This document shows positions 104 to 42,655 of a stretch of DNA of 64,000 bases, piece after piece. Origin of the DNA: Patescibacteria group bacterium (lineage in GTDB: Bacteria > Patescibacteriota > Minisyncoccia > Phycocordibacterales > UBA9973). The notes beneath the pieces are model-generated. The model was not told the DNA's origin, ran no database searches, and saw only the letters and a list, made by a program, of their open reading frames with translations. Both the position numbers and the translations under genes were made by a program. Where the stretch lies: positions 152,586 through 216,585 of the forward strand of contig JAZJXT010000001.1 of NCBI GenBank assembly GCA_040390725.1, written 5' to 3'. The first letter of the stretch is position 1. Every line of letters begins with the position of its first letter.

Positions 104-1498
104 ATGTCCCAAAAAATTTCAAAATTTTTAATTCTCACTTTGGCATTTGCGTCATTTATTTTTCTACCGAGTTTTTCTTCAGCTCAAGCAACATCATATT
201 ACTATAATTGGTATTTAGATACTGATACAACAGGTACAAAAGGACCATTTACATCACTAGAGCTTTGTGAGCAGGATGCTAGTGCGGGAGTATCTTCCGG
301 GGCGTATCAATCAACAGATCCTTGTTATACTGCTGCTACGCCATTAGGTTTGAGTTCTGGAAATTTAACTCCAAATTCTGCCGATGTTATAGCCACAGGT
401 CTTATTCCGAATACTGCATATCGTATCAGTATTTATTGGAAAAATAATCCTACAGATCAAGGTTATAGCAGGAAAGATGTGAGTTTTACCGCTAATAATT
501 CAGGCACTGAGACGGCATCTTTTTCTTCTATTCCTCCATCAATATCTTATGATGCTCGTTTATATAAAGTTTCAACGGGGCAGGTATTAAAAACTACAAC
601 TTTTACTACTAAAGCATTGCAAATAAGTGTGACACTTAGAGATTTAACAGCGACATCCAGTGAATTAATAGCCGGCGGGCTTTTCCCATACGGTACTGAT
701 TCGTATCTTTTTACTGTTTTAGTTACTTCTCCCGGTACTGCTTCAAATACTCAAAAACAAACAGTGACTCCCAGCAATAGCAATATAGCTACGGCTACAT
801 TTTCTGATTTGATTCCAGGGGTTTCATACACATTGATTATTTCCCATGGCAATCAAGACGATTTAAAAGAATTTGATTTTACAAAAGCTTTTCATGGTAT
901 TTGTGGTTCTGCCAATGGTCAATCTTTTCAAACAGCACCCACCGGGGATACGAATCTCTGCTCTGTAGGTATTTCTGATTCAATGACTGAAGACATAGCT
1001 TCATGGACATGGACATGTAAAATAAAAGATTCAAATGATTCTTCTACCAGTCAATATTGCTCCGCCACTAAGGCAGGGAATCCACCTCCGCCGACTCCTC
1101 CGACACCTCCATCATCAGGAGGCAAGGGTTTTGTCGGTGCTTTAGTTCCTTGCGGAATAAGTGAAAACAAGCTCAATACCAATGCGGTCACGGGCGCTCA
1201 GACGGGAGGAGGGGTCACACAGCCTTGCGGTTTTTATGATCTCCTAACTCTTGTAAATAACGTTGTAAGATTTATTATTTTTAATTTAGCTTTGCCCATA
1301 GCTGCTATCATGTTTGCTTATGCGGGTTTTCTACTTATCACTGCGGGGGGAGAGTCTGGTCAAATGACAAAAGCAAAAGGTATTTTTTCCGCAGTTGTGA
1401 TGGGCCTTATTTTTGTCGCGGCTGCATGGCTCATAGTGAAGCTCATTTTGGTTGTATTGGGTTACAAATCCGATTGGATAACTTGGTTTGGATTTTGA
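104..1498 (+). CDS. Secreted multidomain protein: signal peptide, FN3-like beta modules, Cys-rich region, Pro-rich linker (PPPPTPPTPP) and a C-terminal VirB2/TrbC-like pilin domain (two TM helices)
   Basis: ORF track 464 aa. N-terminal signal peptide ending SSAQA. The C-terminal about 110 aa have the same Cys-pair, two-TM architecture as the five downstream small paralogs. The stop overlaps the next start. Confidence 0.6.
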   Translation: MSQKISKFLILTLAFASFIFLPSFSSAQATSYYYNWYLDTDTTGTKGPFTSLELCEQDASAGVSSGAYQSTDPCYTAATPLGLSSGNLTPNSADVIATGLIPNTAYRISIYWKNNPTDQGYSRKDVSFTANNSGTETASFSSIPPSISYDARLYKVSTGQVLKTTTFTTKALQISVTLRDLTATSSELIAGGLFPYGTDSYLFTVLVTSPGTASNTQKQTVTPSNSNIATATFSDLIPGVSYTLIISHGNQDDLKEFDFTKAFHGICGSANGQSFQTAPTGDTNLCSVGISDSMTEDIASWTWTCKIKDSNDSSTSQYCSATKAGNPPPPTPPTPPSSGGKGFVGALVPCGISENKLNTNAVTGAQTGGGVTQPCGFYDLLTLVNNVVRFIIFNLALPIAAIMFAYAGFLLITAGGESGQMTKAKGIFSAVVMGLIFVAAAWLIVKLILVVLGYKSDWITWFGF

Positions 1499-1895
1499 AA
1501 TAATGTATAATAAAGATATGAATTTTAAATTAAAAAATTTTATAGGAATGTTCACAGTCGGTATTTTTGCTTTTTTTATTTTAGTTTTGCCGGTTGTTTC
1601 TCTTGCTAATACCGACAATACAGCTCCTGCTACTGTTCAAGTCGTCAATCCTATCAGCGTGAATGATCTAAATGGTTTTCTTAAAGTTATTTTAGAAGGC
1701 GTAGTTAAAATCGGTATGCCTATTATTGCCCTTGCTATTATTTATTGTGGCTTTCTTTTTGTTTCCGCTCAAGGCAACACAGCTGAGCTAGAAACAGCCA
1801 AGAAATCTCTGATGTATACTCTCATAGGAGCAGCATTATTATTAGGCGCTTGGGCTATAGCTCAGCTCATAACAGAGACTATTACAAGCCTTTAA
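1488..1895 (+). CDS. VirB2/TrbC-like T4SS pilin family protein (paralog 1)
   Basis: 135 aa: signal peptide, then two hydrophobic helices separated by a short polar loop (PIIALAIIYCGFLFVSAQGNTAELETAKKSLMYTLIGAALLLGAWAIAQLI). The start is ambiguous (ATG at 1488, 1503 or 1518). Confidence 0.55.
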   Translation: MDFEIMYNKDMNFKLKNFIGMFTVGIFAFFILVLPVVSLANTDNTAPATVQVVNPISVNDLNGFLKVILEGVVKIGMPIIALAIIYCGFLFVSAQGNTAELETAKKSLMYTLIGAALLLGAWAIAQLITETITSL

Positions 1896-1899
1896 AATT

Positions 1900-2265
1900 A
1901 TGAAGAAATTTATTTTATTTTCTTTAATTTCTCTTACTCCTTCATTTGTTTTTGCGCAGGCTTCGAGTCCCGTATGCAGTATCGGTACAAACTTCAAAGA
2001 TCTTGTTAATTATATATCTTGCCTTATAGAAGGGTCGGTGATTCCTTTTATATTCGGTTTAGCTGTCGTTGCATTTGTCTGGGGTGTTGTGAAGTTCCTC
2101 ATGAGTGCTGAGGATGAAACTCAAAAATCCCAAGGCAAACAATTCATGCTTTGGGGCATCATAGCTTTGGCTGTGATGGTGTCCATCTGGGGTTTGGTAA
2201 AATTACTGACCAATACTTTCGGAGTAAAATATGTTATTCCTCAGGTTCAAAATAAATCACAATAA
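1900..2265 (+). CDS. VirB2/TrbC-like T4SS pilin family protein (paralog 2)
   Basis: 121 aa: signal peptide, a Cys pair before TM1 and the conserved core ...FVWGVVKFLMSAEDE..KQFMLWGIIALAVMVSIWGLVKLLTNTF. Confidence 0.6.
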   Translation: MKKFILFSLISLTPSFVFAQASSPVCSIGTNFKDLVNYISCLIEGSVIPFIFGLAVVAFVWGVVKFLMSAEDETQKSQGKQFMLWGIIALAVMVSIWGLVKLLTNTFGVKYVIPQVQNKSQ

Positions 2266-2281
2266 CAATAACAATAACAAT

Positions 2282-2890
2282 ATGAAAAAATTTATAATTT
2301 TATTTTGTATAATAGTTCTGGCATTATCTTTTAAAATGGCTTTTGCTCAGTACAGCTGGAATTGGACTAATTATTCCGGGACTAATCAAAATATGAATGG
2401 ATCTGGCCTCACTACTCAGGGTACAAATACATGGGGAGGTACTACTCCTACGAATCCTTGGGGTTGGGGTTTTGGCTGGGGTAATGTAGCGCCTGTGATG
2501 AAGGTCCAAGGCCAGAAGCAAGTCGTCGGGGATAAACAAATCGTCGGCTCTACCAGTGATGCTATTACAGGTTCCGCTATGCCTTTTTCCTGTGCATTTA
2601 ATAACAATAATCCTACAGCCAAAGATATATTTAATTATGGTACCTGCGTACTAGGGAATTCTATTATTCCTCTTTTATTTTTATTTGCTTCTATTGTTTT
2701 TATGTGGGGTGTCATCCAATACGTTATCGGTGGACAAGAAGAAGCAAAAAAGGATAAAGGAAAGCAGTTTATGTTTTGGGGCATTATTGCCCTTTTTGTG
2801 GCTGTTTCGGTATGGGGATTAGTAGGTATTTTAACCGGTACATTTAATCTGAAAACCACTGCGCCGTCAGTACAGCCGGTTTCCGAGTAG
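2282..2890 (+). CDS. VirB2/TrbC-like T4SS pilin family protein (paralog 3) with a Gly/Trp/Asn-rich N-terminal extension
   Basis: The start is taken at MKKFIILF (ATG 2282) rather than the track start at 2231. The C-terminal core FMWGVIQYVIGGQEEAKKDKGKQFMFWGIIALFVAVSVWGLVGILTGTFNL matches the paralogs. Confidence 0.6.
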   Translation: MKKFIILFCIIVLALSFKMAFAQYSWNWTNYSGTNQNMNGSGLTTQGTNTWGGTTPTNPWGWGFGWGNVAPVMKVQGQKQVVGDKQIVGSTSDAITGSAMPFSCAFNNNNPTAKDIFNYGTCVLGNSIIPLLFLFASIVFMWGVIQYVIGGQEEAKKDKGKQFMFWGIIALFVAVSVWGLVGILTGTFNLKTTAPSVQPVSE

Positions 2891-3010
2891 TCCACAGTAT
2901 TGTTTGCAGGCTGTGAGATGGTTGTGATACAATATACGTGCCTAATATTTTAGGAAATTATTATTAACAGGTCGTTTATTATTATAAATTAAGATTTAAG
3001 AATTTTTATT

Positions 3011-3397
3011 ATGAAAAAGAAATTTATCGTGTTGGGTAGCGTTTTGTCTTTTGCGCCGATGCTTGCTTTCGCGCAGACAGTTTGTACTACAAATGTTGGA
3101 ACTATCGACTGGCTATTGTGTAGAGTGGGAGATTTACTAAACACAGTTGTGCCTGTGCTTATCGCTTTAGGTGTTGTTTACTTCATCTGGGGTGTCGTTA
3201 CTTATGTAGTTGCAGGTGATGAAGAAGCAAAGAAGACAGGACGAGACAGAATGATCTACGGTATCATCGGTCTAGTTGTTATCGTGTCTATCTGGGGATT
3301 GGTTAGTATCTTGAAGAGTACATTCAATCTTTCAAGTTCAAACCCTGGCACTGTGCAAGTTCCTTGTATTCCTATCCCTCCAAACGTAACTTGTTAA
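3011..3397 (+). CDS. VirB2/TrbC-like T4SS pilin family protein (paralog 4)
   Basis: 128 aa: signal peptide, Cys pair and the core YFIWGVVTYVVAGDEEAKKTGRDRMIYGIIGLVVIVSIWGLVSILKSTFNL. Confidence 0.6.
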   Translation: MKKKFIVLGSVLSFAPMLAFAQTVCTTNVGTIDWLLCRVGDLLNTVVPVLIALGVVYFIWGVVTYVVAGDEEAKKTGRDRMIYGIIGLVVIVSIWGLVSILKSTFNLSSSNPGTVQVPCIPIPPNVTC

Positions 3398-22006: not shown

Positions 22007-22083
22007 TTTCTGCTAGACTGGAAGTGTTCTTTAATTAGTAAAGAAACATTCGGGAGTAGCTCAGCGGTAGAGCGATCGCCTGT

Positions 22084-22646
22084 GGAAATTTCCTCCCTCT
22101 GGTATAATGTTCTTATGCCAGACAATAGGAAATATGCTGATAGACGCGAAGCACTTATTAAAGCTGTTGCAAAACGACGCAAGAAAATAAAAGTTCTTGC
22201 TGTCGAGTACAAAGGAGGCAAATGCCAAATTTGTGGATATATGAAATGTATCGGTGCTTTGGAACTTCATCATATTATTCCAAAAGATAAAAGTTTTGGA
22301 GTAGGTGATAAGGGATATACACGTGCATGGAGTATAGTGCAAAAAGAGTTAGATAAGTGTGCGCTTCTTTGTGCAAATTGTCACAGAGAAGTCGAGTCAG
22401 GCATTACGCAGCTTTCTATCGAAAGATAGATCGAAAACGAGGTGAATTCGGGGAAGCCCAAGCTTGTCATGAGCGGGTAATCCCGAGCCAAGCTCCGACG
22501 TAAGTCGGAGAAGGTGTAGAGACTATCCCGTAAGGGAGTAGTGTTCCAAATTTTGGAATCCGAAGCGCCTCGCTTCTAAGTCTTTTGAGTAATCAAAGGA
22601 TATGAAGATGATATAGTCCGTACCATTAGTAATAATGGAATAAACG
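22084..22646 (+). ncRNA. Group I intron (putative self-splicing) in the tRNA-Asn anticodon loop, carrying an HNH ORF
   Basis: It follows an exon-terminal U and ends in G immediately before the 3' exon. The P7-like pairing halves GACTA (about 22530) and TAGTC (about 22616) are present. The ORF sits in a 5' peripheral loop. Confidence 0.6.
22115..22429 (+). CDS. HNH homing endonuclease (intron-encoded)
   Basis: CQICGY...LELHHIIPK...CANCHREVE is a His-Asn-His/zinc-finger nuclease motif. The track start 22082 is a GTG inside the exon/intron boundary; ATG 22115 is preferred. Confidence 0.7.
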   Translation: MPDNRKYADRREALIKAVAKRRKKIKVLAVEYKGGKCQICGYMKCIGALELHHIIPKDKSFGVGDKGYTRAWSIVQKELDKCALLCANCHREVESGITQLSIER

Positions 22647-22691
22647 TAAGCGATTGGTCGTAGGTTCGATCCCTACCTCCCGAGCCAGTTA

Positions 22692-22728
22692 GCAAAGCAC
22701 CTCCTTAAGGGAGGTGCTTTGCTTTTTG
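22692..22728 (+). terminator. Rho-independent terminator after tRNA-Asn
   Basis: gcaaagcacctcc-ttaa-ggaggtgctttgc followed by ttttt. Confidence 0.6.
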
Positions 22729-22866
22729 TATCTCGGGAGAGAAAGCCAACTGCTTGGCTTTCGTGTAGGGAGCGAACAACGGAGCAATAAATTTTCAGTA
22801 GAAAATTTTGTGAGTTGGTGCCCAGACAAAATTTTTTGGCGAAAAAATTTTAGTCGAGGGAGATAC

Positions 22867-29104: not shown

Positions 29105-29455
29105 ATGTCAGAATTTAAAATATTTCAAGTTGAACGTCCGTGGGGGAATTTCCGGCAATATAATCACAATAGCCCTTGTACGGTAAAAATAATCACAGTT
29201 AAGCCGAATGAAATCTTGAGTTTGCAAAGCCATCAAAAGCGTGCGGAATTTTGGCATGTGCTTTCAGGGGACGGTACGATTCAAATAAATGAAAATAAAT
29301 ACGAGGTTAAAGACGGCGACGAGTATCATATTCCAATAGGCGCAAAACACAGAATGTCTGGGGGTTCTTCCGGTCTTGAAATTTTAGAAATTTCCACTGG
29401 TGATTTTGATGAAGCAGATGTAGTTCGTTATGAAGATAAATATGGCAGGTCTTAA
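29105..29455 (+). CDS. Cupin-domain protein (mannose-6-phosphate isomerase type II C-terminal-like)
   Basis: RPWGNFRQY...LSLQSHQKRAEFWHVLSGDGTIQIN matches the ManC/PMI cupin signature. Confidence 0.65.
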   Translation: MSEFKIFQVERPWGNFRQYNHNSPCTVKIITVKPNEILSLQSHQKRAEFWHVLSGDGTIQINENKYEVKDGDEYHIPIGAKHRMSGGSSGLEILEISTGDFDEADVVRYEDKYGRS

Positions 29456-29458
29456 ATT

Positions 29459-30617
29459 TATGGCAAAAACTTCCGTAAAAAAAGTAACTAAAAAAGTTGT
29501 AAAAAAAGTTGCACAAACTAAGATAAAAACTCGTGCCAAAAAGATTGTTAGAAAATTAATTAAAAAAACAACAAATAAAAAACCTGTAAAAAAAGTTGTA
29601 AAAAAACCATCTCCAGTAAAACTCGAAAGAGCAAAACATAATCCTATAATAAAACCGCGAATGTATTCATGGGAATCAAAAGCTACGTTTAATCCCACGG
29701 CATTTTTGGACGGCAGTGATGTGCATATTGTCTACAGGGCAATAGGGGAGAGTGACTCTTCGGTATTGGGGTATGCTCTTTCTCATGATGGCTACCATAT
29801 CCTCGAGAGACCAACTTATTTTATTTATAAACGTTTTTCGGATCTTTCTCCAGTGGGCGAGCCGATTGATTATATTTCTGGCGGAGGATGGAGTGGAGGC
29901 TGTGAAGATCCACGCATTACTAGGATAGGTGATATGGTATACATGCTTTATACTGCTTTTGATGGGTGGGGTTCGGTACGTATTGCTTTTACTTCGATGC
30001 CTCTTGAAAATTTTAAGAAAAAGAAATGGCATTGGAAAAAACCGGTTTTTATTTCTCCACCGGGGAAGGTACAGAAAAATTGGGTTTTATTTCCAGAAAA
30101 AATAAATGGGAAATACGCAATATTGCATAGCATGTCGCCTAGAGTTATGATTGCTTATTTTGATAGCTTGGATGAATTGAATGGTAAAAAATTTATAGAA
30201 AGTTTTCGAAAAGTAGATCCGGAATGGCAAAATTCTTGGGATACATGGGTACGAGGTATCGGTCCTGCACCTATTAAAACAAAACTCGGCTGGCTCTTGC
30301 TTTATCACGCAATGGACAAAAATGATCCTGACAGATACAAGCTCGGTGCGATAATCACGGACATAAAAGATCCGACAAGAATTTTATATCATTCCGATAA
30401 TCCTATCTTGGAGCCGGATGAGCATTATGAGAATCATGGACATGCGCATGGAGTTGTTTATTGTTGCGGAGCAATAGTAAAAGATAAAAAACTTTTTGTG
30501 TATTATGGCGGAGCGGATAAGTATACATGCGTAGCATCTGTGTCGCTCGAAGAACTTTTAGAAGATTTGCAAACTGGAAAAGTTGCGAAGTTAAATAAAT
30601 TAAAAAAGAAAAAATAA
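29459..30617 (+). CDS. Glycoside hydrolase family 130 (DUF377) protein with a Lys-rich N-terminal tail
   Basis: HNPIIKP..WESKATFNPTAFLDG..VHIVYRAIG and GGCEDPRITRIG are GH130 phosphorylase/hydrolase hallmarks. Confidence 0.65.
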
Positions 30618-30618
30618 T

Positions 30619-32547
30619 ATGTACGTAGTAAAAAGATTAGAAGAAAATCCGATTTTAGCGCCAAATGGAGACCGGTATTGGGAAGCATTTGCTACTTTTA
30701 ATCTTTGCCCTGTAAGGCATGGTAAATATATTTATGGATTGTTTAGAGCCATTTCCGCTGTGGATACGTTGCAGACTCCTCGTCAGATGTCTGTTATTGG
30801 AATAGGGAAAAGTAAAGACGGCGTGCATTTTGAAGATAGAGTGCCATTTATAATTCCGGAAGAAGAATGGGAACAATTCGGTTGCGAAGACCCAAGAGTT
30901 ACTTTTTTTGAGGGAACTTTCTACACTTTTTACACAGCACTTTCAAAATATCCTTTTGGCGCTGAAGGCATCAAGGTGGCTGTCGCTCTTTCTCGAGACT
31001 TAAAAACAGTTTATGAAAAGCATTTCGTTACACCCTTTAATGCCAAAGCCATGACTCTTTTTCCGGAGAGGGTAAATGGTAAAGTCACAGTTATTTTTTC
31101 TGCCCATACTGATTCTCCTCCTGCAAAAATGGTAATAGCGCAAGTAAATAAAATTGAAGAGTTATGGGACAATAAATTTTGGGAAAAGTGGGAAGAAAAA
31201 ATTGACGAGCATACAATTGATCCTCGCAGAAATGAATATGACCACGTAGAAGTCGGAGCTACTCCAATAAAAACAAAGCATGGTTGGCTTTTAATTTATT
31301 CGCATATTCAAAATTATTTTCGTTCACCGGAAAATCTCGATAGAATTTTTGGCGTCTCAGCTTTGTTGCTTGATTTGAATGATCCTAAGAAAATAATCGG
31401 TCGCACTCGCGGGCCATTACTAGTACCACAGGAGACATATGAGCTTTCCGGAGATATTCCCGATGTTATTTTTCCAAGCGGAACATTGATAGAAAAGGAT
31501 ACCCTTACTATATACTACGGCGCCGCGGACACTACGGTGTGTTCGGCGCGAGTTAATCTGACAGACTTGATTTCCAGCATGAGCTTGGAGCATTCTGATA
31601 AATGGCATTTTTTGCGAGCGAAAGAAAATCCGATTATAATTCCAAAAATAGAACATTCGTGGGAAGCGCAGGGGACTCTGAATCCGGCGGCAATTTTACT
31701 GAAAGGCAAAACTCATATTTTATATAGAGCTTTTTCTTCGGACAATACTTCGAATATCGGGTATGCAGTATCTGATGATGGTATAAATATCACAGAAAGA
31801 TTAGCGGAGCCAATATACGTACCACGTGAGGATTTTGAAAGTAAAAAAATAAATAATGGATATTCTGGTTGTGAAGATCCTCGTCTGACGAAAATCGGTA
31901 AAAATATTTATATGTGTTACACGGCATTTGATAGCGTGGGGCCTCCACGTGTGGCGATAACATCTATTACCGAGAAAGACTTTTTGGCGCGCAACTGGAA
32001 ATGGGAAAAACCATTTTTAATTACACCGGAAGGTTTTGATGACAAAGACACATGTCTTTTCCCTGATAAATTTAAGCAAGGTTATTTTATTTTACATCGT
32101 GTGGGTGATGAAATTTGTGGAGATTATTTAAAGTCTCTTGATTTTAAGAGTGAAATTATTAGAAAATGTATTCATGTTTTAGGCCCGAGACGGAATGCTT
32201 GGGATAGCGCCAAAGTCGGTATTACTGCTCCACCCATAAAAACAAAATACGGCTGGCTTTTATTGTATCACGGTGTTTCAAAAAGCCACGGTACATATCG
32301 TGTAGGGGCGGTATTGCTCGATTTGAAAGATCCGGCGATAGTTTTATCACGTAGCACTGATCCTATTTTTGAGCCGGAAATGGAATATGAAAAAGTTGGT
32401 TTTGTGAAAAATGTTGTTTTTCCTTGTGGAATGACCGAAAAAAATGGGATTTTGTATATATATTATGGTGGGGCTGATAAGGTAGTGGGTGTAGCTACTA
32501 TGGATCTCAATATTATCTTAAAAGCCTTGTTAAATGGGATTAAATAG
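30619..32547 (+). CDS. Tandem double GH130 (DUF377) domain protein
   Basis: Two copies of ENPI..P....WEA.ATFN..., FGCEDPRVT / SGCEDPRLT and YIYYGGAD. Confidence 0.65.
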   Translation: MYVVKRLEENPILAPNGDRYWEAFATFNLCPVRHGKYIYGLFRAISAVDTLQTPRQMSVIGIGKSKDGVHFEDRVPFIIPEEEWEQFGCEDPRVTFFEGTFYTFYTALSKYPFGAEGIKVAVALSRDLKTVYEKHFVTPFNAKAMTLFPERVNGKVTVIFSAHTDSPPAKMVIAQVNKIEELWDNKFWEKWEEKIDEHTIDPRRNEYDHVEVGATPIKTKHGWLLIYSHIQNYFRSPENLDRIFGVSALLLDLNDPKKIIGRTRGPLLVPQETYELSGDIPDVIFPSGTLIEKDTLTIYYGAADTTVCSARVNLTDLISSMSLEHSDKWHFLRAKENPIIIPKIEHSWEAQGTLNPAAILLKGKTHILYRAFSSDNTSNIGYAVSDDGINITERLAEPIYVPREDFESKKINNGYSGCEDPRLTKIGKNIYMCYTAFDSVGPPRVAITSITEKDFLARNWKWEKPFLITPEGFDDKDTCLFPDKFKQGYFILHRVGDEICGDYLKSLDFKSEIIRKCIHVLGPRRNAWDSAKVGITAPPIKTKYGWLLLYHGVSKSHGTYRVGAVLLDLKDPAIVLSRSTDPIFEPEMEYEKVGFVKNVVFPCGMTEKNGILYIYYGGADKVVGVATMDLNIILKALLNGIK

Positions 32548-33930: not shown

Positions 33931-34063
33931 AATATTATCTTAACAGAAAATGACATTTTTGGTTAGGATTTGTATAAAAAACGTAAATATTAGTCATTTT
34001 AACCCTCAATTTACGTTTTTCTTGACAAAAATTATAAATCGACTATAATATAGATGTATATTT

Positions 34064-34954
34064 ATGAATAAAGTAAATAAAAAAGTTCAAAATTTAATAG
34101 ACTTGAAAAAGACTTTTGATTCTCTTAAAAAGGGTAAGGAGTCTCTTTTGGCTGTTTTAGGTGAAGTGGAGCTTGCTGAGTCGGTTTATAACTCAAATGC
34201 TATTGAGAATAGTACTTTAACTCTTCCTGATACAGAAAAAATACTTCTGGATTTAGAAGTTTCAAAAGATTATTCACTTCGCGAAGTTTTTGAGGCAAAG
34301 AATTTAGCTCGCGTATATGAATATGTAAAAAATAAAAAAGATAATATTGTCTTAAATCAAGACACGCTTCTTTTTATCCACGGTTTACTTATTGGTGGTA
34401 TTGATGATTCTATCGCCGGCAGATTCAGAAAAGCTCATGAATTTGTGAGAGTGGGTAAACATATCGCGCCTGCTCCGGAGCATATCATGCGCATGATAGA
34501 AGTTTTAATAAATGAATATAAAACAAATCATGATTTAAATATTTTTAAAAAAATAGCGTATTTTCATTTACAATTTGAAACAATTCACCCGTTTTGTGAC
34601 GGCAATGGACGTATTGGTCGCGTTCTTATAAACTTACAGCTTCAAGAGTTCGGTTATCCGAATATAATTATTCGTGACAAAGAAAAGAAAATTTATTATA
34701 AAACCTTTTCACAATTTAGAGATGAAAAATCCACGAAGCAAATGGAGCAAGTAATATATTTATCTCTTTCAGAAAGTTTAAATAAAAGAATTGCATATTT
34801 ACAAGGAAAAGAAATTATAACTTTAGCCGAGTATTCAAAAGATAAATCTTTATCTTTGGCTGGACTTATAAACTCCGGCAGGCGTCAGACTATTCCTGCA
34901 TTTCGTGAAAAAGGTGTTTGGAAAATCAGCAATAGCTATGTCGTGGAAAAATAA
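34064..34954 (+). CDS. Fic family protein (AMPylase type) with an N-terminal inhibitory motif
   Basis: Fic motif HPFCDGNGRIGR, plus S-x-x-x-E-N (SNAIEN) in the N-terminal helix. Confidence 0.85.
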   Translation: MNKVNKKVQNLIDLKKTFDSLKKGKESLLAVLGEVELAESVYNSNAIENSTLTLPDTEKILLDLEVSKDYSLREVFEAKNLARVYEYVKNKKDNIVLNQDTLLFIHGLLIGGIDDSIAGRFRKAHEFVRVGKHIAPAPEHIMRMIEVLINEYKTNHDLNIFKKIAYFHLQFETIHPFCDGNGRIGRVLINLQLQEFGYPNIIIRDKEKKIYYKTFSQFRDEKSTKQMEQVIYLSLSESLNKRIAYLQGKEIITLAEYSKDKSLSLAGLINSGRRQTIPAFREKGVWKISNSYVVEK

Positions 34955-35239
34955 ATGAGCTACTACGCAGATAAAGGGAATAAATATCCGCAAAATCCTG
35001 AATTAGTTTTGGACTTTCACGGCTACACGACGATGGAGTGCAAAGAAGAACTCGATGAGCTTATTGGAAATAGTGAATACTCGCATATCCGCATCATCGT
35101 AGGCAAAGGGCAAAATAGCGCAAACGGACCCATCCTCCCAGACTTTGTCCGCAATTATCTCACAACCCGCAACATCCGCTTTAATCAATCCAAAATTCAA
35201 GCCGGCGGCGCAGGTGCCTTGGAGGTGTTTTTGGATTAG
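34955..35239 (+). CDS. Smr domain protein
   Basis: LDFHGYT..E....L...IG..EY.HIRIIVGKGQNS fits the Smr pattern. The start abuts the Fic stop (TAAATG). Confidence 0.6.
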   Translation: MSYYADKGNKYPQNPELVLDFHGYTTMECKEELDELIGNSEYSHIRIIVGKGQNSANGPILPDFVRNYLTTRNIRFNQSKIQAGGAGALEVFLD

Positions 35240-35277
35240 AATTTTTTTAAAAAATGATGTAGAATCTATAAGTTATA

Positions 35278-37985
35278 TGATAAGCCTTAATGAAATTAAA
35301 AATCGAGCAGTTACTTTTTCAAAAGAGTGGGAACGCGAAGTAAGTGAAGATGCAGAAGCTAAAAGCTTTTGGGATGGATTTTTTGATGTGTTTGGTATGT
35401 CTCGTCGCCGCGTGGCTTCTTTTGAGCATCAAGTAAAAAAGCGTGATGGCTCTCAAGGATATATAGATGTATTTTGGAAGGGTGTAATGCTTGCCGAACA
35501 TAAATCTCGCGGTAAAAGCTTGGATAAAGCATTTACTCAAGCAAAAGATTATTTTCCTGGACTTAAGGAAGATGAATTACCAAGATATGTAATAGTTTCA
35601 GATTTTGAAAAAATTAGAGTTTATGATTTAGATAAAGAAACTGAAAAAGAATTTTCACTAGGGGATCTTTCAAAGAATATAGATTTATTTGATTTTATTT
35701 CTGGACATAATTCTATTGTTGATTATGCAAAAGAAGAAATGGCAAGCATTAAAGTTGCTCGCCTTATGGCTGATTTTCATAATGAAATTGCTAAGACGGG
35801 TTATTCTGGGCATGATTTAGAAGTATTTTTGATTAGAATTTTATTTTGTCTTTTTGCAGATGATACTGAAATTTTTCCAAAAAATAGTTTTAAAAATTAC
35901 ATAGAAACTAAGACAAATATAGACGGCTCTGACTTAGGTTTACACTTAGGTCAAATTTTTGATGTTTTAAATACTCCAAATAATAAACGACAAACAAATT
36001 TAGATGAACAGTTAAAGCAATTTCCGTATATCAATGGTGGAATTTTTTCTGAACAGATACGCCCAGTATCTCTTGATGCCGGAGCACGCTTGAAACTCAT
36101 AATATGTTGTAATGCTGATTGGTCAGAAATATCCGCTTCAATTTTCGGATCTTTGTTTCAGGGTGTTATGAATGAAAAGGAGAGACGACAGCTTGGTGCG
36201 CATTATACATCTGAAGCCAATATTTTAAAACTCATACACCCTCTTTTTCTTGATGAGCTTTATATAGAATTCGATGAAGTAAAATATGATATAAAAAAGT
36301 TAGATATTTTCCATAAGAAACTTACCACGTTAACTTTCTTAGATCCCGCCTGTGGTTGTGGTAATTTTTTGGTGGTGGCATACAGAGAACTTCGTAAATT
36401 AGAACTCGAGGTTTTGAAACGAAAAGATAAAATAGGTCAAATGATGCTTTTGGGTGCGCAAGATTTATCTATTGTAAATGTGAATCAATTTTATGGCATA
36501 GAGATAGAAGAATTCCCGACGCTTGTCGCTCGCGTAGCTATGTATTTAGTTGACCATCAAATGAACACGGAACTTTCAAAAACATTTGGGCACGTGTATG
36601 CTCGTATTCCGCTACGTGAACCGGCAAGTATAGTAAATGATGATGCTCTTACTACTGATTGGGAAAGTGTTGTTCCAAAAAATAAACTTTCTTATATTCT
36701 TGGTAACCCACCATTTATAGGTAGTAAATTAATGTCTGAACAGCAACGAAAAAATCTTATTGCTTGTTTTGATAATAATGATGGTGTAGGTGTTCTTGAT
36801 TTTGTTACAGCGTGGTATGCAAAGGCTGCAAAATATATTAATGATACCGATATAAAAGTTGCTTTTGTTTCCACGAATTCTATATCACAAGGTGAACAAG
36901 TTGGTATACTTTGGAGCTATTTAAATACTTTTAAGATTGAAATTCAATTTGCCCATCAAACTTTCAAGTGGAATAATGATGCACCGGGCGTCGCTGCTGT
37001 TTTTTGTGTAATTATTGGTTTTAGTAATAAAAATAAAAATGAAAAATATCTTTATGAGTATGAAAATGTAAAATCTGAACCGAAAGAAAGCATGGTGTCT
37101 CATCTTAATGCCTATTTAGTAAAAGGAGATGATGTTTTTATAAAAAAAAGATCAAAACCTATATGTGAAGTGCCTGAAATGAGTTTCGGCAATATGCCTC
37201 TTGATGGTGGTAATTTATTGTTTACAAATTCAGAAAAGGAAGAATTTATACTGAATGAACCAGGGGCAGAAAAATTTATTCGTCCACTTATTAGTGCAAA
37301 AGAATTTTTGAATAATGAAAAACGGTGGTGTTTATGGCTTGTAGGAGTAGAACCACAAAAATTAAGAGAAATGTCTTTGGTATTAGAACGAATTCAAAAA
37401 GTAAAAGAATTTCGTGAAGCAAGTGTTGCACCTTCTACTAAAAAATTTGCATCAATTCCAAGCCTTTTTAGAGATAAAAATAATCCGGATTCTACTATTG
37501 TTATTCCTAGAGTTTCTTCAGAAAATAGAAAATATATACCTATGGGATTTTTTACTAAAGAATCAATTGTAAGTGATACTTGTATGTCTTTACCAAATGG
37601 AAATTTGTATCATTTCGGAATTTTAGAATCAGATATGCATATGATATGGGTTAATTATACTTGTGGAAGATTAAAAAGTGATTATCGCTATTCAAAAGAT
37701 ATTGTTTATAATAATTTTCCTTGGCCGGAATTTAAAGAAGTTGTTTTAACAAATGAAGCTAAATTCAAAGTTTCTGAATGCGCGCAAGCTGTTCTTGACG
37801 CAAGGGCTAGGTTTCCAAATAGCTCACTTGCGGATTTGTATGATTCGAATACTATGCCACCGGATTTAGTAGAAGCACATAATAATCTAGATAGGGCAGT
37901 GGATGCCTGTTATGGTAGAAAGTTTAAAAACAAAGAGGAGAGAATAGAATTTTTGTTTGAGTTGTATAAGGTGTATACTAAATGA
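35278..37985 (+). CDS. MmeI-family Type IIL (IIG) restriction-modification enzyme (endonuclease plus N6-adenine methyltransferase plus TRD in one polypeptide)
   Basis: The N-terminus FSKEWERE..AKSFWDGFFDVFGMSRRRVASFEHQVKK...LPRYVIVSDFEKIRVYDL closely parallels MmeI. MTase motif I is LDPACGCGNFLVVAYRELR and motif IV is ILGNPPFIGS. The track start 35145 is rejected. Confidence 0.85.
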
Positions 37986-37986
37986 T

Positions 37987-38208
37987 ATGGAAACAAGAAT
38001 GAATTTCAATGAAATATTTAATACTCACGTAGACGGTTCTATTGAACCGCGTCGTCTAATTCAAGTTGGGGGAGTATCTTTTGGTCCAGGTGTTAGATTT
38101 AATAGAGGTGTTTCTTTTTCAGGAATAGATTTTTCTCTTTTTATAGGTAGGGAGTTTCAAGTTAGAGATGAAAATGGAGTAATAAATATACTAGGTGTTT
38201 TTCAATAA
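37987..38208 (+). CDS. Hypothetical small protein (74 aa)
   Basis: ORF starting METRMNFNEIF immediately after the RM gene stop. Confidence 0.35.
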   Translation: METRMNFNEIFNTHVDGSIEPRRLIQVGGVSFGPGVRFNRGVSFSGIDFSLFIGREFQVRDENGVINILGVFQ

Positions 38209-38214
38209 ATTTTT

Positions 38215-38553
38215 ATGTCAAAATCACAAGAACAACCTGAATTTAAGATTAATGAGTTAAGGATAATTTCTGAGGCAGTTAATCAATCAAAAGATTATGC
38301 AAAATCTTATTCTGATGATAAAGTAAAAAATATTAATTGGTTAATGGCTGGTGTTGTTATTGTTTGCTTACTTGGTTTCTTGCAATTAATTATTGATTCT
38401 TTTCATATAAATTCTGCAACTTATAAGGAGTATTCTCAAAAAACTGAAGAGATAGAAACTACACAAAAAATTAATAAAGAGTTATTAGATAAAAATATTA
38501 AAAATCAAGAAATTATAATTGACTTACTACGGAAACAATCTTTTAAAGAATAA
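38215..38553 (+). CDS. Hypothetical membrane/coiled-coil protein
   Basis: 112 aa with a central TM (NWLMAGVVIVCLLGFLQLII) flanked by charged helical segments. Confidence 0.4.
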   Translation: MSKSQEQPEFKINELRIISEAVNQSKDYAKSYSDDKVKNINWLMAGVVIVCLLGFLQLIIDSFHINSATYKEYSQKTEEIETTQKINKELLDKNIKNQEIIIDLLRKQSFKE

Positions 38554-38583
38554 TATAATGGTAAAAAAAGATGAAAAAATTGT

Positions 38584-39426
38584 ATGAAAATAGAAATCAT
38601 ACAATCGCTTGTAAATAATTTTGAATCTTATGCCAAAAAAACTGAAGAAGGTGTGGAATTTTGGCTTGCTAGAGATTTGCAACAACTTTTAGGATATGAC
38701 AAGTGGGATAATTTTTTGAATGTGATTTCAAAAGCTAAAATTGCTTGCGAAAATACAGGACACAATACTTCTGATCATTTTGCCGACGCTGGGAAAATGA
38801 TAGATTTAGGTAAGGGGGCACAAAGAGAAGTCTCAGATATAATGCTTACGAGATATGCTTGCTATTTGATTGCTCAAAATGGTGATCCAAGAAAAGAGGA
38901 AATTGCTTTTGCTCAGAACTATTTTGCACTTCAAACTAGGAAATTTGAAATTATTGAAAAAAGAATTCAAGAGTTTGAAAGAGTGAAGGCACGTCACAAA
39001 CTTTCTGAAACAGAAAAAGAATTATCTAGTGTTATTTTTCAACAAACTCGTAGCGATAAAAATTTCGCTCTAATTCGCAGTAAGGGAGATAAGGCTCTTT
39101 TTGGATACGGAACAAGTGAAATGAAATTGAAATTAGGTGTTCCTCAAGGTAGAGCCCTTTCTGATTTTCAACCAACTATTCTTTTGAAAGCAAAAGATTT
39201 TGCAACAGAAATTACAATTTTTAATACAAAAGCAAAAAATTTAAGAACAGAACAGTCGATTTCAGACGAACATATTATAAACAACAGGAGTGTTCGAAAA
39301 ACACTCCTGTCTCGTGGTATTAGACCTGAAAGTTTACCAAAAGAAGAAGATATTAAAAAAGTAGAACGAAAATTGTCATCTGATGAAAAGAAAAATTTAA
39401 AGAAACCAGATAAGCTTAAAAAATAA
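38584..39426 (+). CDS. DNA-damage-inducible protein D (DinD) homologue
   Basis: EFWLARDLQQLLGYDKWDNF..SDHFADAGKMIDLGKGAQREVSDIMLTRYACYLIAQNGDPRKEEIAFAQNYFALQTRK aligns by eye with the E. coli DinD N-terminal half. Confidence 0.7.
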   Translation: MKIEIIQSLVNNFESYAKKTEEGVEFWLARDLQQLLGYDKWDNFLNVISKAKIACENTGHNTSDHFADAGKMIDLGKGAQREVSDIMLTRYACYLIAQNGDPRKEEIAFAQNYFALQTRKFEIIEKRIQEFERVKARHKLSETEKELSSVIFQQTRSDKNFALIRSKGDKALFGYGTSEMKLKLGVPQGRALSDFQPTILLKAKDFATEITIFNTKAKNLRTEQSISDEHIINNRSVRKTLLSRGIRPESLPKEEDIKKVERKLSSDEKKNLKKPDKLKK

Positions 39427-39481
39427 TATTAAAATAGATTTACATAAAATAAAAAAGTCAAAGTTATCCATAAGTATTATT

Positions 39482-40030
39482 ATGCAAACCCTCAAACAAC
39501 TAAACGGACTTTTTTATCGGGTGCGGAATACGGCGCGGGGGAGGAAAGTTTTGATAAGTATTGCGGGGGATGGGGCGGTGAATGTATCGAAAGGCTCGCG
39601 GGTGAGTTTGGAAAGTGTGGAGAAAATAATGCGGGAGAAGTTTGATTGGATTATGAGCAAGGTGTCGGAGCAGAAGGCTAAACCGCAGAAAATATTGGCG
39701 CATTATTCGGTGAAGGATTTCAGGGAGAATAAGAATCGGGCGCATGTACTAGTACGTGATAGGTTGGAATTTTTTAATAAATTCTATGGTTATAAAATAG
39801 GGAGGGTGAGCATACGCAATCAAAAATCGCGCTGGGGAAGCTGTTCCGGAAAAGGAAATTTGAGTTTTAATTACAAAATAGTTTTCTTGCCTCTCGAGCT
39901 CGCTGACTACATAATAGTGCACGAGCTTTGCCATTTAAAAGAGATGAATCATTCCGTAAAATTCTGGTCCCTCGTCGCCGAACAAATCCCGGATTATAAG
40001 CAGAGAAGAAAATCCATAAAATTATATTAA
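39482..40030 (+). CDS. DUF45 / YgjP-like zinc metallopeptidase (M48/WLM-like)
   Basis: ..YKIVFLPLELADYIIVHELCHLKEMNHS..FW contains an HExxH zinc-binding motif in the YgjP family context. The 5' half of the gene is conspicuously G-rich. Confidence 0.65.
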   Translation: MQTLKQLNGLFYRVRNTARGRKVLISIAGDGAVNVSKGSRVSLESVEKIMREKFDWIMSKVSEQKAKPQKILAHYSVKDFRENKNRAHVLVRDRLEFFNKFYGYKIGRVSIRNQKSRWGSCSGKGNLSFNYKIVFLPLELADYIIVHELCHLKEMNHSVKFWSLVAEQIPDYKQRRKSIKLY

Positions 40031-40057
40031 AATTTCGGCAGTAATGTTTTTTAATTT

Positions 40058-40088
40058 ACTTATTCGTACGAATAGGTAAATGGAGGTT
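40058..40088. promoter_or_regulatory. Palindromic operator-like site 1 (TATTCGTACGAATA plus GGTAAATGG) upstream of the ArsR-family gene
   Basis: A perfect 14-bp palindrome read directly; the same extended motif occurs at two other sites. Confidence 0.55.
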
Positions 40089-40108
40089 TTAGTGATATTA
40101 TTATATAT

Positions 40109-40369
40109 ATGAAAGATCATGAAAAAATATTAAAGGCTTTGGCAAATCATCGGCGTTTAAAGATTTTAAAATATCTTAGGGATAAAAAAATTGCTTCAGT
40201 GTCTATTCTTGCTGAACATTTGAATTTATCCTTTAAATCAACATCAAAACATCTTGCCGTATTATTCGGAGCGGGGATTGTGGAAAAAGAACAAAAGAAT
40301 CTTTCTATGCTTTATTCACTAGCGAATCCTTTGCCAAAAGTTGCAAAACAAGTTATTGGGCTTATTTAA
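40109..40369 (+). CDS. ArsR/SmtB family winged-helix transcriptional regulator
   Basis: LKALANHRRLKILKYL....ASVSILAEHLNLSFKSTSKHLAVLFGAGIV. Confidence 0.7.
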   Translation: MKDHEKILKALANHRRLKILKYLRDKKIASVSILAEHLNLSFKSTSKHLAVLFGAGIVEKEQKNLSMLYSLANPLPKVAKQVIGLI

Positions 40370-40404
40370 GATAATCATATTTATTTGGGTTTTAGTTGTA
40401 TTTA

Positions 40405-40435
40405 CCTATTCGTACGAATAGGTGTATGGTAAATA
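40405..40435. promoter_or_regulatory. Palindromic operator-like site 2 (CCTATTCGTACGAATAGG plus TGTATGGTAAATA)
   Basis: Perfect 18-bp palindrome between the ArsR gene and the downstream small-ORF operon. Confidence 0.55.
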
Positions 40436-42588: not shown

Positions 42589-42622
42589 AATCTTGAGGAA
42601 AAAATAGAAAGTTAATTATGTT

Positions 42623-42655
42623 CTTATTCGTACGAATAGGTAAATGGTAAATAAG
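42623..42655. promoter_or_regulatory. Palindromic operator-like site 3 (TTATTCGTACGAATAGG plus TAAATGGTAAATA) upstream of ychF
   Basis: Same motif as sites 1 and 2, about 50 bp upstream of the ychF start. Confidence 0.55.

Follow-up and report, generated by a model that had tools for sequence, protein, structure and literature searches.

Our analysis indicates that the genes at positions 34064-37985 of the window (the whole 64,000-nucleotide stretch of Patescibacteria DNA analysed here) very probably form a patchwork of independently inherited genes and not one module. The three open reading frames described there, encoding a Fic protein, an Smr-domain protein and an MmeI-family restriction-modification (RM) enzyme, are all real and intact. 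In surveys of about 170 related loci, drawn from metagenome contigs of uneven length and searched for Smr by tblastn and HMM with a 94-aa query, their linkage is not conserved: neither an Smr nor an MmeI gene occurs at any of 94 loci of Fic homologs (58-88% identity; 75 of them with at least 400 nt downstream), none of 80 loci of MmeI homologs (48-79% identity) has an Smr gene, only 3 of those 80 have a Fic gene, each time a distant one (27-38% identity), and no Fic gene accompanies Smr in the 5 other Smr contexts examined. The Fic-Smr-MmeI adjacency was found in this lineage only, in the window and, in identical arrangement, on a contig of a second assembly (L001). Since no such module is conserved across these loci, we read the RM gene as an ordinary defence gene set in a patchwork of neighbours. 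A first-pass annotation had described a defence island in which a Fic-Smr toxin or abortive-infection (Abi) module is coupled to the RM enzyme. The island stands as a looser neighbourhood, in that Fic matches the PDC-S04 and SoFic models, a DinD gene downstream matches PDC-S13, and RM genes follow Fic homologs elsewhere; the coupled module finds no support, given both the counts above and the mosaic of third-codon-position GC content (GC3) described below.

All genes from 34064 to 40369 lie on the same strand, behind a sigma-70-type promoter-like site, TTGACA-16-TATAAT (34022-34049, + strand), placed 14 nt before the Fic ATG. This site is a pattern match only, and in our pattern scan it is the sole 12/12 consensus match within 33.5-41.5 kb; the scan gave no internal promoter above its threshold for the MmeI gene. 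By eye only, we also spotted a TAGAAT 11 nt before the ATG of that gene. Because of the shared orientation, the abutment of Fic and Smr and the lone perfect consensus, the genes from 34064 to 40369 may be co-transcribed. The start/stop adjacency claimed at first holds for Fic and Smr, where TAA runs directly into ATG (34952-34957), but not for Smr and the MmeI gene, between which lies a spacer of 37 nt. Likewise, the description of the local GC content as typical of the host was imprecise and masks a strongly mosaic composition. Against a window-wide median GC3 of 0.31 (sd 0.07), the value is 0.24 in Fic, 0.20 in both the MmeI-type gene and DinD, 0.50 in the YgjP-like gene and 0.53 in Smr; Smr and YgjP have the two top values among all window ORFs.

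The Fic gene (34064-34954, + strand) encodes a 296-aa class II protein, predicted to be an auto-inhibited AMP transferase (PF02661, E 4.7e-21). Its active-site motif, HPFCDGNGRIGR at residues 175-186 (34586-34621), fits HxFx(D/E)GNGRxxR, and N-terminal to this core the same chain carries an inhibitory (S/T)xxxE(G/N) motif, SNAIEN at residues 44-49 (34193-34210), so that the class II assignment with an intact inhibitory motif made in the first pass is borne out. Among solved structures the best match is FICD (E 4e-23), whose TVAIEGN aligns with SNAIEN. The subfamily is unusually conserved, the best 120 database clusters all being at least 79% identical and bearing names from several candidate phyla. 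Among PADLOC models the protein matches PDC-S04 (3e-31) and, over part of the model only, SoFic (6e-27); it is not a SoFic equivalog, scoring 38.6 bits with NF046030 against a cut-off of 550. We picture it as a class II AMP transferase with a distribution of its own, which would be auto-inhibited by the alpha-inh helix that it carries.

Could the Fic protein alone, without Smr, nevertheless be an accessory of the adjacent RM enzyme, a backup or guard that would AMPylate a host or phage target if restriction were blocked? We think this unlikely, although part of the neighbourhood evidence favours it. The Fic subfamily sits recurrently just upstream of DNA methyltransferase or RM genes, which makes it a plausible accessory defence gene. 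Among the families listed, RM and methyltransferase families are the commonest in the 3 kb that follow Fic homologs (N6_Mtase 5, N6_N4_Mtase 2, C5 methyltransferase 1, GmrSD 3, ResIII 3, DpnI 1) and rare upstream, where the listed methyltransferase count is a single N6_Mtase; our neighbour tables give the 25 commonest Pfam families, and singletons may be hidden. HsdM follows Fic in two loci, directly and then followed by DinD in one (L157) and about 0.8 kb downstream in the other (L146), and a TaqI-type RM gene is present at the locus of the closest homolog. The matches to PDC-S04 and SoFic point the same way, as does the rationale of guilt by embedding: the PDC models go back to genes that lie inside BREX, DISARM or Type I RM loci (Payne et al. 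preprint), and PrrC is a precedent within Type I RM loci. However, among the families listed, the majority of Fic-homolog loci lack an RM gene within 3 kb, and downstream of the closest homologs (83-88% identity) one finds an 87-aa ORF with the TaqI-type RM gene, MscL, GST, DUF1905 or a recombinase. Moreover, the RM partners vary between Type I, Type II and IIG, which gives no sign of a specific protein-protein coupling. As noted, the protein falls short of SoFic equivalog status, and the PDC families are candidates only; the text of the preprint mentions neither Fic, nor Bro-N, nor individual PDC-S numbers. Finally, a pattern scan of IMG/VR, sensitive to close relatives only, gave no close relative of Fic or Smr among viral contigs. 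A broader version, which we hold to be distinctly improbable, would make the whole Patescibacteria Fic subfamily a dedicated RM-associated accessory, placed preferentially just upstream of the resident RM or methyltransferase system and maybe co-transcribed with it, which could serve as a backup Abi AMPylase when restriction fails and may here have recruited Smr.

Between Fic and the MmeI gene lies a stand-alone Smr-domain protein of 94 aa (34955-35239, + strand; PF01713, E 6.8e-11), whose GC3 is the highest in the window. The first-pass assignment is sound: the protein keeps both Smr motifs, DxH as DFH at residues 20-22 and GxG as GKG at residues 50-52, and is catalytically plausible. Its assignment stops at the domain, since the NCBIfam SmrB and SmrA matches are weak and far under their cut-offs, that to SmrB giving 24.9 bits against 128. 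Elsewhere in Patescibacteria, as found by tblastn and HMM searches with the 94-aa query, Smr homologs lie among core genes, after PIF1 or ABC-F genes and before TspO or RluB-like genes, with RM genes 1.5-2.5 kb downstream in two lineages. At those loci Smr and its core neighbours share a GC3 of 0.54, against 0.21-0.30 for the RM genes. We also considered Smr as a gene generally linked to RM or defence systems and rejected this, because an Smr-family HMM and phmmer search of RM-rich and Fic-rich loci totalling 1.84 Mb had matches only in the loci fetched with Smr itself, and because its GC3 resembles that of core genes and not that of RM genes. Only in this lineage does Smr stand between Fic and MmeI. 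Smr would then be a small nuclease gene whose compositional origin differs from that of its neighbours, and it most likely acts solo, by SmrB-like cleavage of RNA on stalled ribosomes or by nicking DNA.

These observations bear directly on the proposal that Fic is a toxin and Smr its partner nuclease or antitoxin, the two forming a toxin-antitoxin or Abi pair within one combined defence module with the MmeI-type enzyme. In its favour are the stop-start abutment of Fic and Smr, their common orientation, the one strong promoter-like site ahead of Fic, the identical arrangement in the second assembly, and the precedent of SoFic-AS1, where a small downstream protein (AS1, 47 aa) regulates a defensive Fic. 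We nevertheless regard the proposal as very doubtful. The genes do not co-occur outside this lineage at any of the Fic, MmeI or other Smr loci surveyed, and the Smr gene differs sharply in GC3 from both neighbours. Moreover, a class II Fic protein with its own inhibitory helix does not need a separate antitoxin, and AS1 is not an Smr protein. A functional coupling of the Fic, Smr and RM genes specific to this lineage may exist, given the abutment and co-orientation. Here, the close packing of genes in one MAG lineage was no evidence that they work as a module.

At the core of the region is the RM gene itself (35277-37985, + strand), which encodes a 902-aa Type IIL (IIG) enzyme of the MmeI family. 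All five MmeI Pfam domains are present, namely MmeI_N (4e-40), MmeI_hel (2e-24), MmeI_Mtase (residues 335-594, 1.4e-90), MmeI_TRD (617-818, 1e-77) and MmeI_C (829-902, 5e-28), and the model REase_MTase_IIG is matched over its full length (1194 bits, 3-908 of 912). The single polypeptide is MmeI-like throughout: residues 2-901 align with residues 3-903 of the MmeI structure 5HR4 (E 8e-296, 51% identity over 892 columns), including the string of N-terminal identities reported earlier. The ORF can be extended to 946 aa from a TTG at 35145; the first-pass annotation gave this length but already preferred the ATG, with 902 aa. We rejected the TTG start because its 44 extra residues overlap Smr and have no MmeI counterpart. 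The ATG at 35277 is the start that lines up with residue 3 of MmeI, and the gene was independently called at 902 aa in the second assembly. The nuclease domain has a PD-ExK triad, D64, E74 and K76 (35466-35504, + strand), aligned with D70, E80 and K82, which have a catalytic role in MmeI (PMC2731913), and E50 aligns with MmeI E51. The methyltransferase is of the gamma class of N6-adenine enzymes, with motif I (DPACGCGNF, residues 356-364) preceding motif IV (NPPF, residues 477-480; together 36342-36716, + strand) and a C-terminal target recognition domain (TRD) following, just as first described. It appears to be a one-gene system: the ORFs between 29.4 and 46.3 kb include no companion DNA methyltransferase, and the one further methyltransferase there belongs with PF10672 (Methyltrans_SAM) and PF03602 (Cons_hypoth95), both generic SAM-dependent methyltransferase families. 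The D-E-K triad and NPPF/Y are conserved in 77 of 77 homologs, and such retention of the triad indicates purifying selection on the nuclease. The deposition of the gene as 'DNA methyltransferase' (MES2023241.1) might suggest an orphan with methyltransferase activity only, or an inactive remnant. Either is extremely unlikely, given that the gene is full length without frameshift or truncation, has all five domains, and keeps catalytic residues that are conserved in every homolog compared. On these alignments the protein is an intact single-chain RM enzyme that is likely active.

The first pass held that the specificity of such an enzyme can be predicted from its TRD, and mapping the protein onto MmeI under the published rules (PMC4833311, PMC2731914) does yield a predicted recognition site, NAG(R/G)AG. 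The residues concerned are F637, M640, A718, R732, D733, R745, D767, T768, K800, D802 and R804 (37185-37688, + strand). By these rules, F and M at MmeI positions 642 and 645 specify A at position 2 of the site, as in SdeAI and CstMI; R and D at 751 and 773 specify G at position 3; T and R at 774 and 810 accompany R in SdeAI, and G in DrdIV and MaqI; and K and D at 806 and 808 specify G at position 6 (PMC4833311, PMC2731914). The position-1 residues A718, R732 and D733 fit no published rule cleanly, so we leave that position as N, G or C being the most plausible first base. This combination is a recurrent class of its own among the homologs, and the 55 different combinations of specificity residues among 77 homologs are the known diversification pattern of the MmeI family.

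By homology with MmeI, whose mechanism is described in PMC2582602, PMC4833311 and PMC2731913, one polypeptide would bind the asymmetric 6-bp site predicted above, flip the adenine at position 5 and methylate it at N6 on one strand only, thereby protecting the host. Where unmodified sites are present, the N-terminal PD-ExK domain would cut about 20/18 nt downstream, and efficient cleavage would require two sites. These activities, like those suggested for the other genes of the region, are predictions from sequence.

Downstream, the first ORF starts 1 nt past the MmeI stop and encodes a 73-aa hypothetical protein without a family match (37987-38208, + strand). It is followed by a 112-aa hypothetical protein of no credible family (38215-38553, + strand), with no homolog in any fetched locus save L001. 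Next comes a 280-aa DinD, DNA damage-inducible protein D (38584-39426, + strand), with a Bro-N domain (6e-13); it scores 352 bits with NF008573 over residues 2-278, above the equivalog cut-off of 242, matches the PADLOC candidate PDC-S13 over its full length (5e-113), and also matches some Type I S subunits in their N-terminal part. After it lies a 182-aa YgjP-like (M48/DUF45) metallopeptidase (39482-40030, + strand; PF01863, 8e-40), named 'M48 family metallopeptidase', homologs of which occur elsewhere near Fic or Smr homologs and, in two Fic-homolog loci, near RM genes, for example adjoining HsdR in L008. We considered these genes as conserved small partners of MmeI and rejected this: a homolog of the 73-aa ORF turned up a single time, right behind an MmeI homolog (L042), and the 112-aa ORF, DinD and YgjP never stand beside the other MmeI homologs in the 80 loci. 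This part of the patchwork holds a DinD whose family is found embedded in RM loci, together with the YgjP-like protein, which has relatives close to RM genes at two related loci.

What do these results mean for annotation and for the family? The public entry is better read as a bifunctional RM enzyme. The enzyme adds an MmeI-family member from an uncultured Patescibacteria lineage and could be a data point for the position-1 code, as a representative of the A/R/D class; the family is used for engineering restriction specificities, and the position-1 code is poorly understood. We expect its practical value to be modest. The recurrent order of Fic before RM genes is a lead on RM-embedded defence candidates, one already anticipated by PADLOC PDC-S04.

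Comparison with known systems places each gene in turn. The Fic protein shares with FICD/HYPE and the bacterial class II Fic proteins both HPFx[D/E]GNGRxxR and, towards the N terminus of that chain, the inhibitory (S/T)xxxE(G/N) helix, while, unlike SoFic, it is followed by an Smr gene and not by a 47-aa AS1-like gene. The 94-aa Smr has the DxH and GxG that mark active enzymes among SmrB-type nucleases, but has neither the N-terminal ribosome-binding hook of SmrB nor MutS2 or KOW domains. DinD/PDC-S13 and YgjP-like proteins are known from RM loci; here they come after a Type IIL gene and are not embedded in a Type I system. The RM enzyme has in common with MmeI of Methylophilus methylotrophus (PDB 5HR4) full-length colinearity, the five domains, the D-E-K triad, DPACGCGNF and NPPF, whereas its host is an uncultured Patescibacteria bacterium and its contacts differ at every variable position (Y642F, K645M, F737R, Y738D, E751R, N773D, A774T, E806K and R808D); we therefore predict NAG(R/G)AG and not the TCCRAC of MmeI. 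Its position-1 residues set it apart from SdeAI (CAGRAG 21/19) and CstMI (AAGGAG 20/18). Nevertheless, according to their published residue descriptions, both of these enzymes have F and M at MmeI 642 and 645, as here, and SdeAI, at 908 aa against 902, also has the same T and R at 774 and 810.

Our analysis indicates that three plus-strand genes, encoding Fic (34064-34954), Smr (34955-35239) and an MmeI-family enzyme (35277-37985), do not belong together as a module. Three independent neighbourhood tests, based on metagenome contigs and close-relative pattern searches, speak against it, and the Fic-Smr module proposed in the first-pass annotation shows no recurrent linkage in the loci of Fic, MmeI or Smr homologs. 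Five of the closest Fic homologs (80-88% identity) all have different downstream genes, namely an 87-aa ORF followed by a TaqI-type RM system, MscL, a GST, DUF1905 and a serine recombinase locus, and tblastn found Smr and MmeI at none of 94 Fic loci, 75 of which had at least 400 nt downstream. In the 80 loci encoding MmeI homologs, with flanks of up to 8 kb, there were no homologs of Smr, or of DinD and the YgjP-like peptidase, which follow the MmeI gene here, and a distant Fic (27-38% identity) occurred in only 3. Smr homologs (66-77% identity) lie after a PIF1 helicase or an ABC-F ATPase and are followed by TspO, a glucosaminidase or a pseudouridine synthase; no Fic stands beside any of those examined, and the Smr-family HMM gave no further match across the 1.84 Mb of loci retrieved.

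Base composition points the same way. Third-codon-position GC (GC3) is 0.24 in Fic, 0.53 in Smr, 0.20 in the MmeI gene, 0.12 and 0.14 in the two small ORFs that follow and, further downstream, 0.20 in DinD, 0.50 in YgjP and 0.22 in ArsR, Smr and YgjP ranking first and second among all ORFs of the window. Because of this mosaic, spanning 0.12-0.53 from Fic to ArsR against a window median of 0.31 (sd 0.07), the earlier description of the local GC as host-typical is inaccurate. In other genomes Smr has a GC3 of ~0.54, like its core neighbours, and nearby RM genes have 0.21-0.30. Smr and the YgjP-like peptidase (39482-40030) each sit between low-GC3 genes, and at a further Patescibacteria locus (L011) a distance of 5 kb separates their homologs. 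Both genes may be what is left of an older backbone of higher GC, with the low-GC3 genes as insertions.

A few observations speak for some coupling of the three genes. The Fic stop directly abuts the Smr start (TAA then ATG), so that the start/stop adjacency claimed for the string holds for this pair, while 37 nt separate Smr from the MmeI ATG. Moreover, a promoter-like TTGACA-16-TATAAT, the only perfect one in 8 kb, lies 14 nt 5' of the Fic ATG and makes co-transcription of the co-oriented string 34064-40369 plausible. The defensive SoFic, with its small downstream antitoxin, the 47-aa AS1, offers a precedent; however, AS1 is unrelated to Smr, a class II Fic already has its own inhibitor, and GC3 separates Smr (0.53) from Fic (0.24) and MmeI (0.20).

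Rather than a module, what is real is a looser defence neighbourhood around the Fic/MmeI locus. We typed by Pfam two sets of 148 ORFs around Fic homologs, one from the 3 kb downstream (de-duplicated) and one from upstream; each table lists the 25 commonest families, so that singletons may be hidden. Among the families listed downstream, N6_Mtase and Fic led (5 each), followed by GmrSD_N, HsdM_N, Eco57I, ResIII and Peptidase_S24/LexA (3 each) and N6_N4_Mtase, RhuM and SLFN helicase (2 each), with C5 methylase, DpnI and Type_ISP_C also present; the upstream ORFs were mainly housekeeping, alongside one N6_Mtase, four RhuM and three NYN matches. Methyltransferase ORFs among the families listed thus number 8 downstream versus 1 upstream, an uncontrolled count that is suggestive of Fic-RM enrichment. 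At one locus (L157) an HsdM of 810 aa directly follows Fic, with a DinD homolog next in line, and at another (L146) HsdM lies ~0.8 kb downstream of Fic. Here the order 3' of the MmeI gene is a 73-aa ORF, with one homolog, equally placed, in a single other locus (L042), a 112-aa ORF, a DinD equivalog (352 bits; PDC-S13 5e-113) and the YgjP-like peptidase. Given the RM genes near Fic homologs and DinD/YgjP downstream, the term defence island may be used to describe the neighbourhood and not to name a mechanism. We consider it improbable that this conserved group of Fic proteins serves as a backup defence coupled to RM systems.

Several Patescibacteria carry a stretch running from PPIase to PIF1, Smr, a small ORF, TspO and glucosaminidase, followed by varied RM systems: at two Smr-homolog loci (L013 and L018) these are an EcoRI-type methylase with GmrSD/HNH, and Dam with GmrSD, DpnII and Mrr. 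At a Fic-homolog locus (L008) the PPIase-TspO stretch is immediately preceded by the Fic homolog. Together these arrangements suggest that defence genes insert at a common hotspot.

Elsewhere in the window, a 28-bp palindrome, ATTTACCTATTCGTACGAATAGGTAAAT, occurs at 40054-40081, 40400-40427 and 42618-42645; two copies bracket the ArsR-family regulator gene (40109-40369) and the third precedes YchF (42703). Its 18-nt core has 3 matches versus 0 expected, with no other copy in the window, and the palindrome is probably either the operator of this ArsR-family protein or a terminator hairpin common to the sites. A group I intron (match to Rfam RF00028 at 22369-22639, 70.8 bits) interrupts a tRNA gene in 22050-22690 and is accompanied by an HNH-type ORF (22082-22429, CxxC...HH...CANCH). 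The 5' half of the tRNA starts at 22050 (TCGGGAGTAGCTCAGCGG...) and the 3' half (T arm plus CTCCCGAGCCA) follows the intron within 22631-22730; ARAGORN made no call for the interrupted tRNA at 22050, which appears Tyr-like with some splice points only. Five successive ORFs at 104-3397 each have a C-terminal T4SS_pilin domain (PF18895), forming a tandem pilin-like family, and two adjoining GH130 (mannoside phosphorylase-like) genes occupy 29430-32547, the first extended at its N terminus by a lysine-rich segment, the second encoding a tandem double-domain protein.

Smr (94 aa; PF01713, E 6.8e-11) is a minimal Smr-domain protein and putative nuclease: it keeps the DxH (DFH) and GxG (GKG) motifs, marks of active SmrB-type nucleases, consists of the bare domain and falls far below the SmrA/SmrB cut-offs. 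Fic (296 aa; PF02661, E 4.7e-21) has its active-site motif HPFCDGNGRIGR at aa 175-186, and since SNAIEN at aa 44-49 aligns with the inhibitory TVAIEGN of FICD it is class II with an intact inhibitory helix motif, as first annotated. It has at least 8000 homolog matches. The best 120 clusters are 79-100% identical to it and bear names from different candidate phyla, even one archaeal MAG, an unusual conservation; a second group lies at ~58-67% identity. A pattern search for close relatives found none of Fic or Smr in viral collections.

The long ORF runs from TTG 35145 to 37985 (946 aa), and the 902-aa form from ATG 35277 is the right one, since the alignment with MmeI opens at its residue 2 and the gene was independently called at 902 aa in a second assembly; the 946-aa start does not stand. 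NCBI holds the proteins from a Patescibacteria MAG (274,923-bp contig) and names the enzyme only 'DNA methyltransferase'. By every family criterion that sequence can address, the protein is an MmeI-family RM enzyme, as originally claimed. Pfam finds all five domains in order (E 4e-40 to 1e-90), MmeI_N (aa 10-173), MmeI_hel (179-257), MmeI_Mtase (335-594), MmeI_TRD (617-818) and MmeI_C (829-902), and the Type IIG model of PADLOC covers it end to end (1194 bits). MmeI (5HR4), its sole solved relative (E 8e-296), aligns over residues 3-903 with residues 2-901, 459 of 892 columns (51%) being identical. The annotated motifs DPACGCGNF (motif I) and NPPF are present at aa 356 and 477. When it was aligned with 76 homologs of 48-79% identity drawn from genome contigs, all 77 sequences proved to keep NPPF/Y and the D-E-K nuclease triad (here D64, E74 and K76); the catalytic role of the nuclease residues and the family criteria have been described (PMC2731913). 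The eleven DNA-contact positions show 55 distinct combinations among the 77, and such variation is the known specificity diversification of the family (PMC2731914). The enzyme is of a known kind, and there is nothing mechanistically new at the locus.

A recognition site could be predicted from the TRD contact residues, as anticipated: the structure-based and covariation rules published for the family give NAG(R/G)AG. A718/R732/D733 (MmeI A723/F737/Y738) match no published rule, so position 1 is kept as N, G or C being most plausible. F637/M640 (MmeI Y642/K645) is the pair reported for SdeAI and CstMI, both reading A at position 2; R745/D767 (MmeI E751/N773) would give G at position 3; T768/R804 (MmeI A774/R810) is the pair giving R in SdeAI and G in DrdIV and MaqI; at position 5, L799/V746 would face the T that pairs with the methylated A; and K800/D802 (MmeI E806/R808) 'exclusively specifies G:C' at position 6. 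By homology, the enzyme would methylate one strand only, cut ~20/18 nt away and need two sites.

Among known systems, then, the enzyme has the F/M pair at MmeI positions 642/645 in common with SdeAI and CstMI, and the T/R pair at 774/810 in common with SdeAI, DrdIV and MaqI. The Fic protein is closest to FICD and PDC-S04 (PADLOC, 3e-31); its match to the SoFic model of PADLOC is partial (6e-27), it misses the SoFic equivalog cut-off, and it is a Fic distinct from SoFic.
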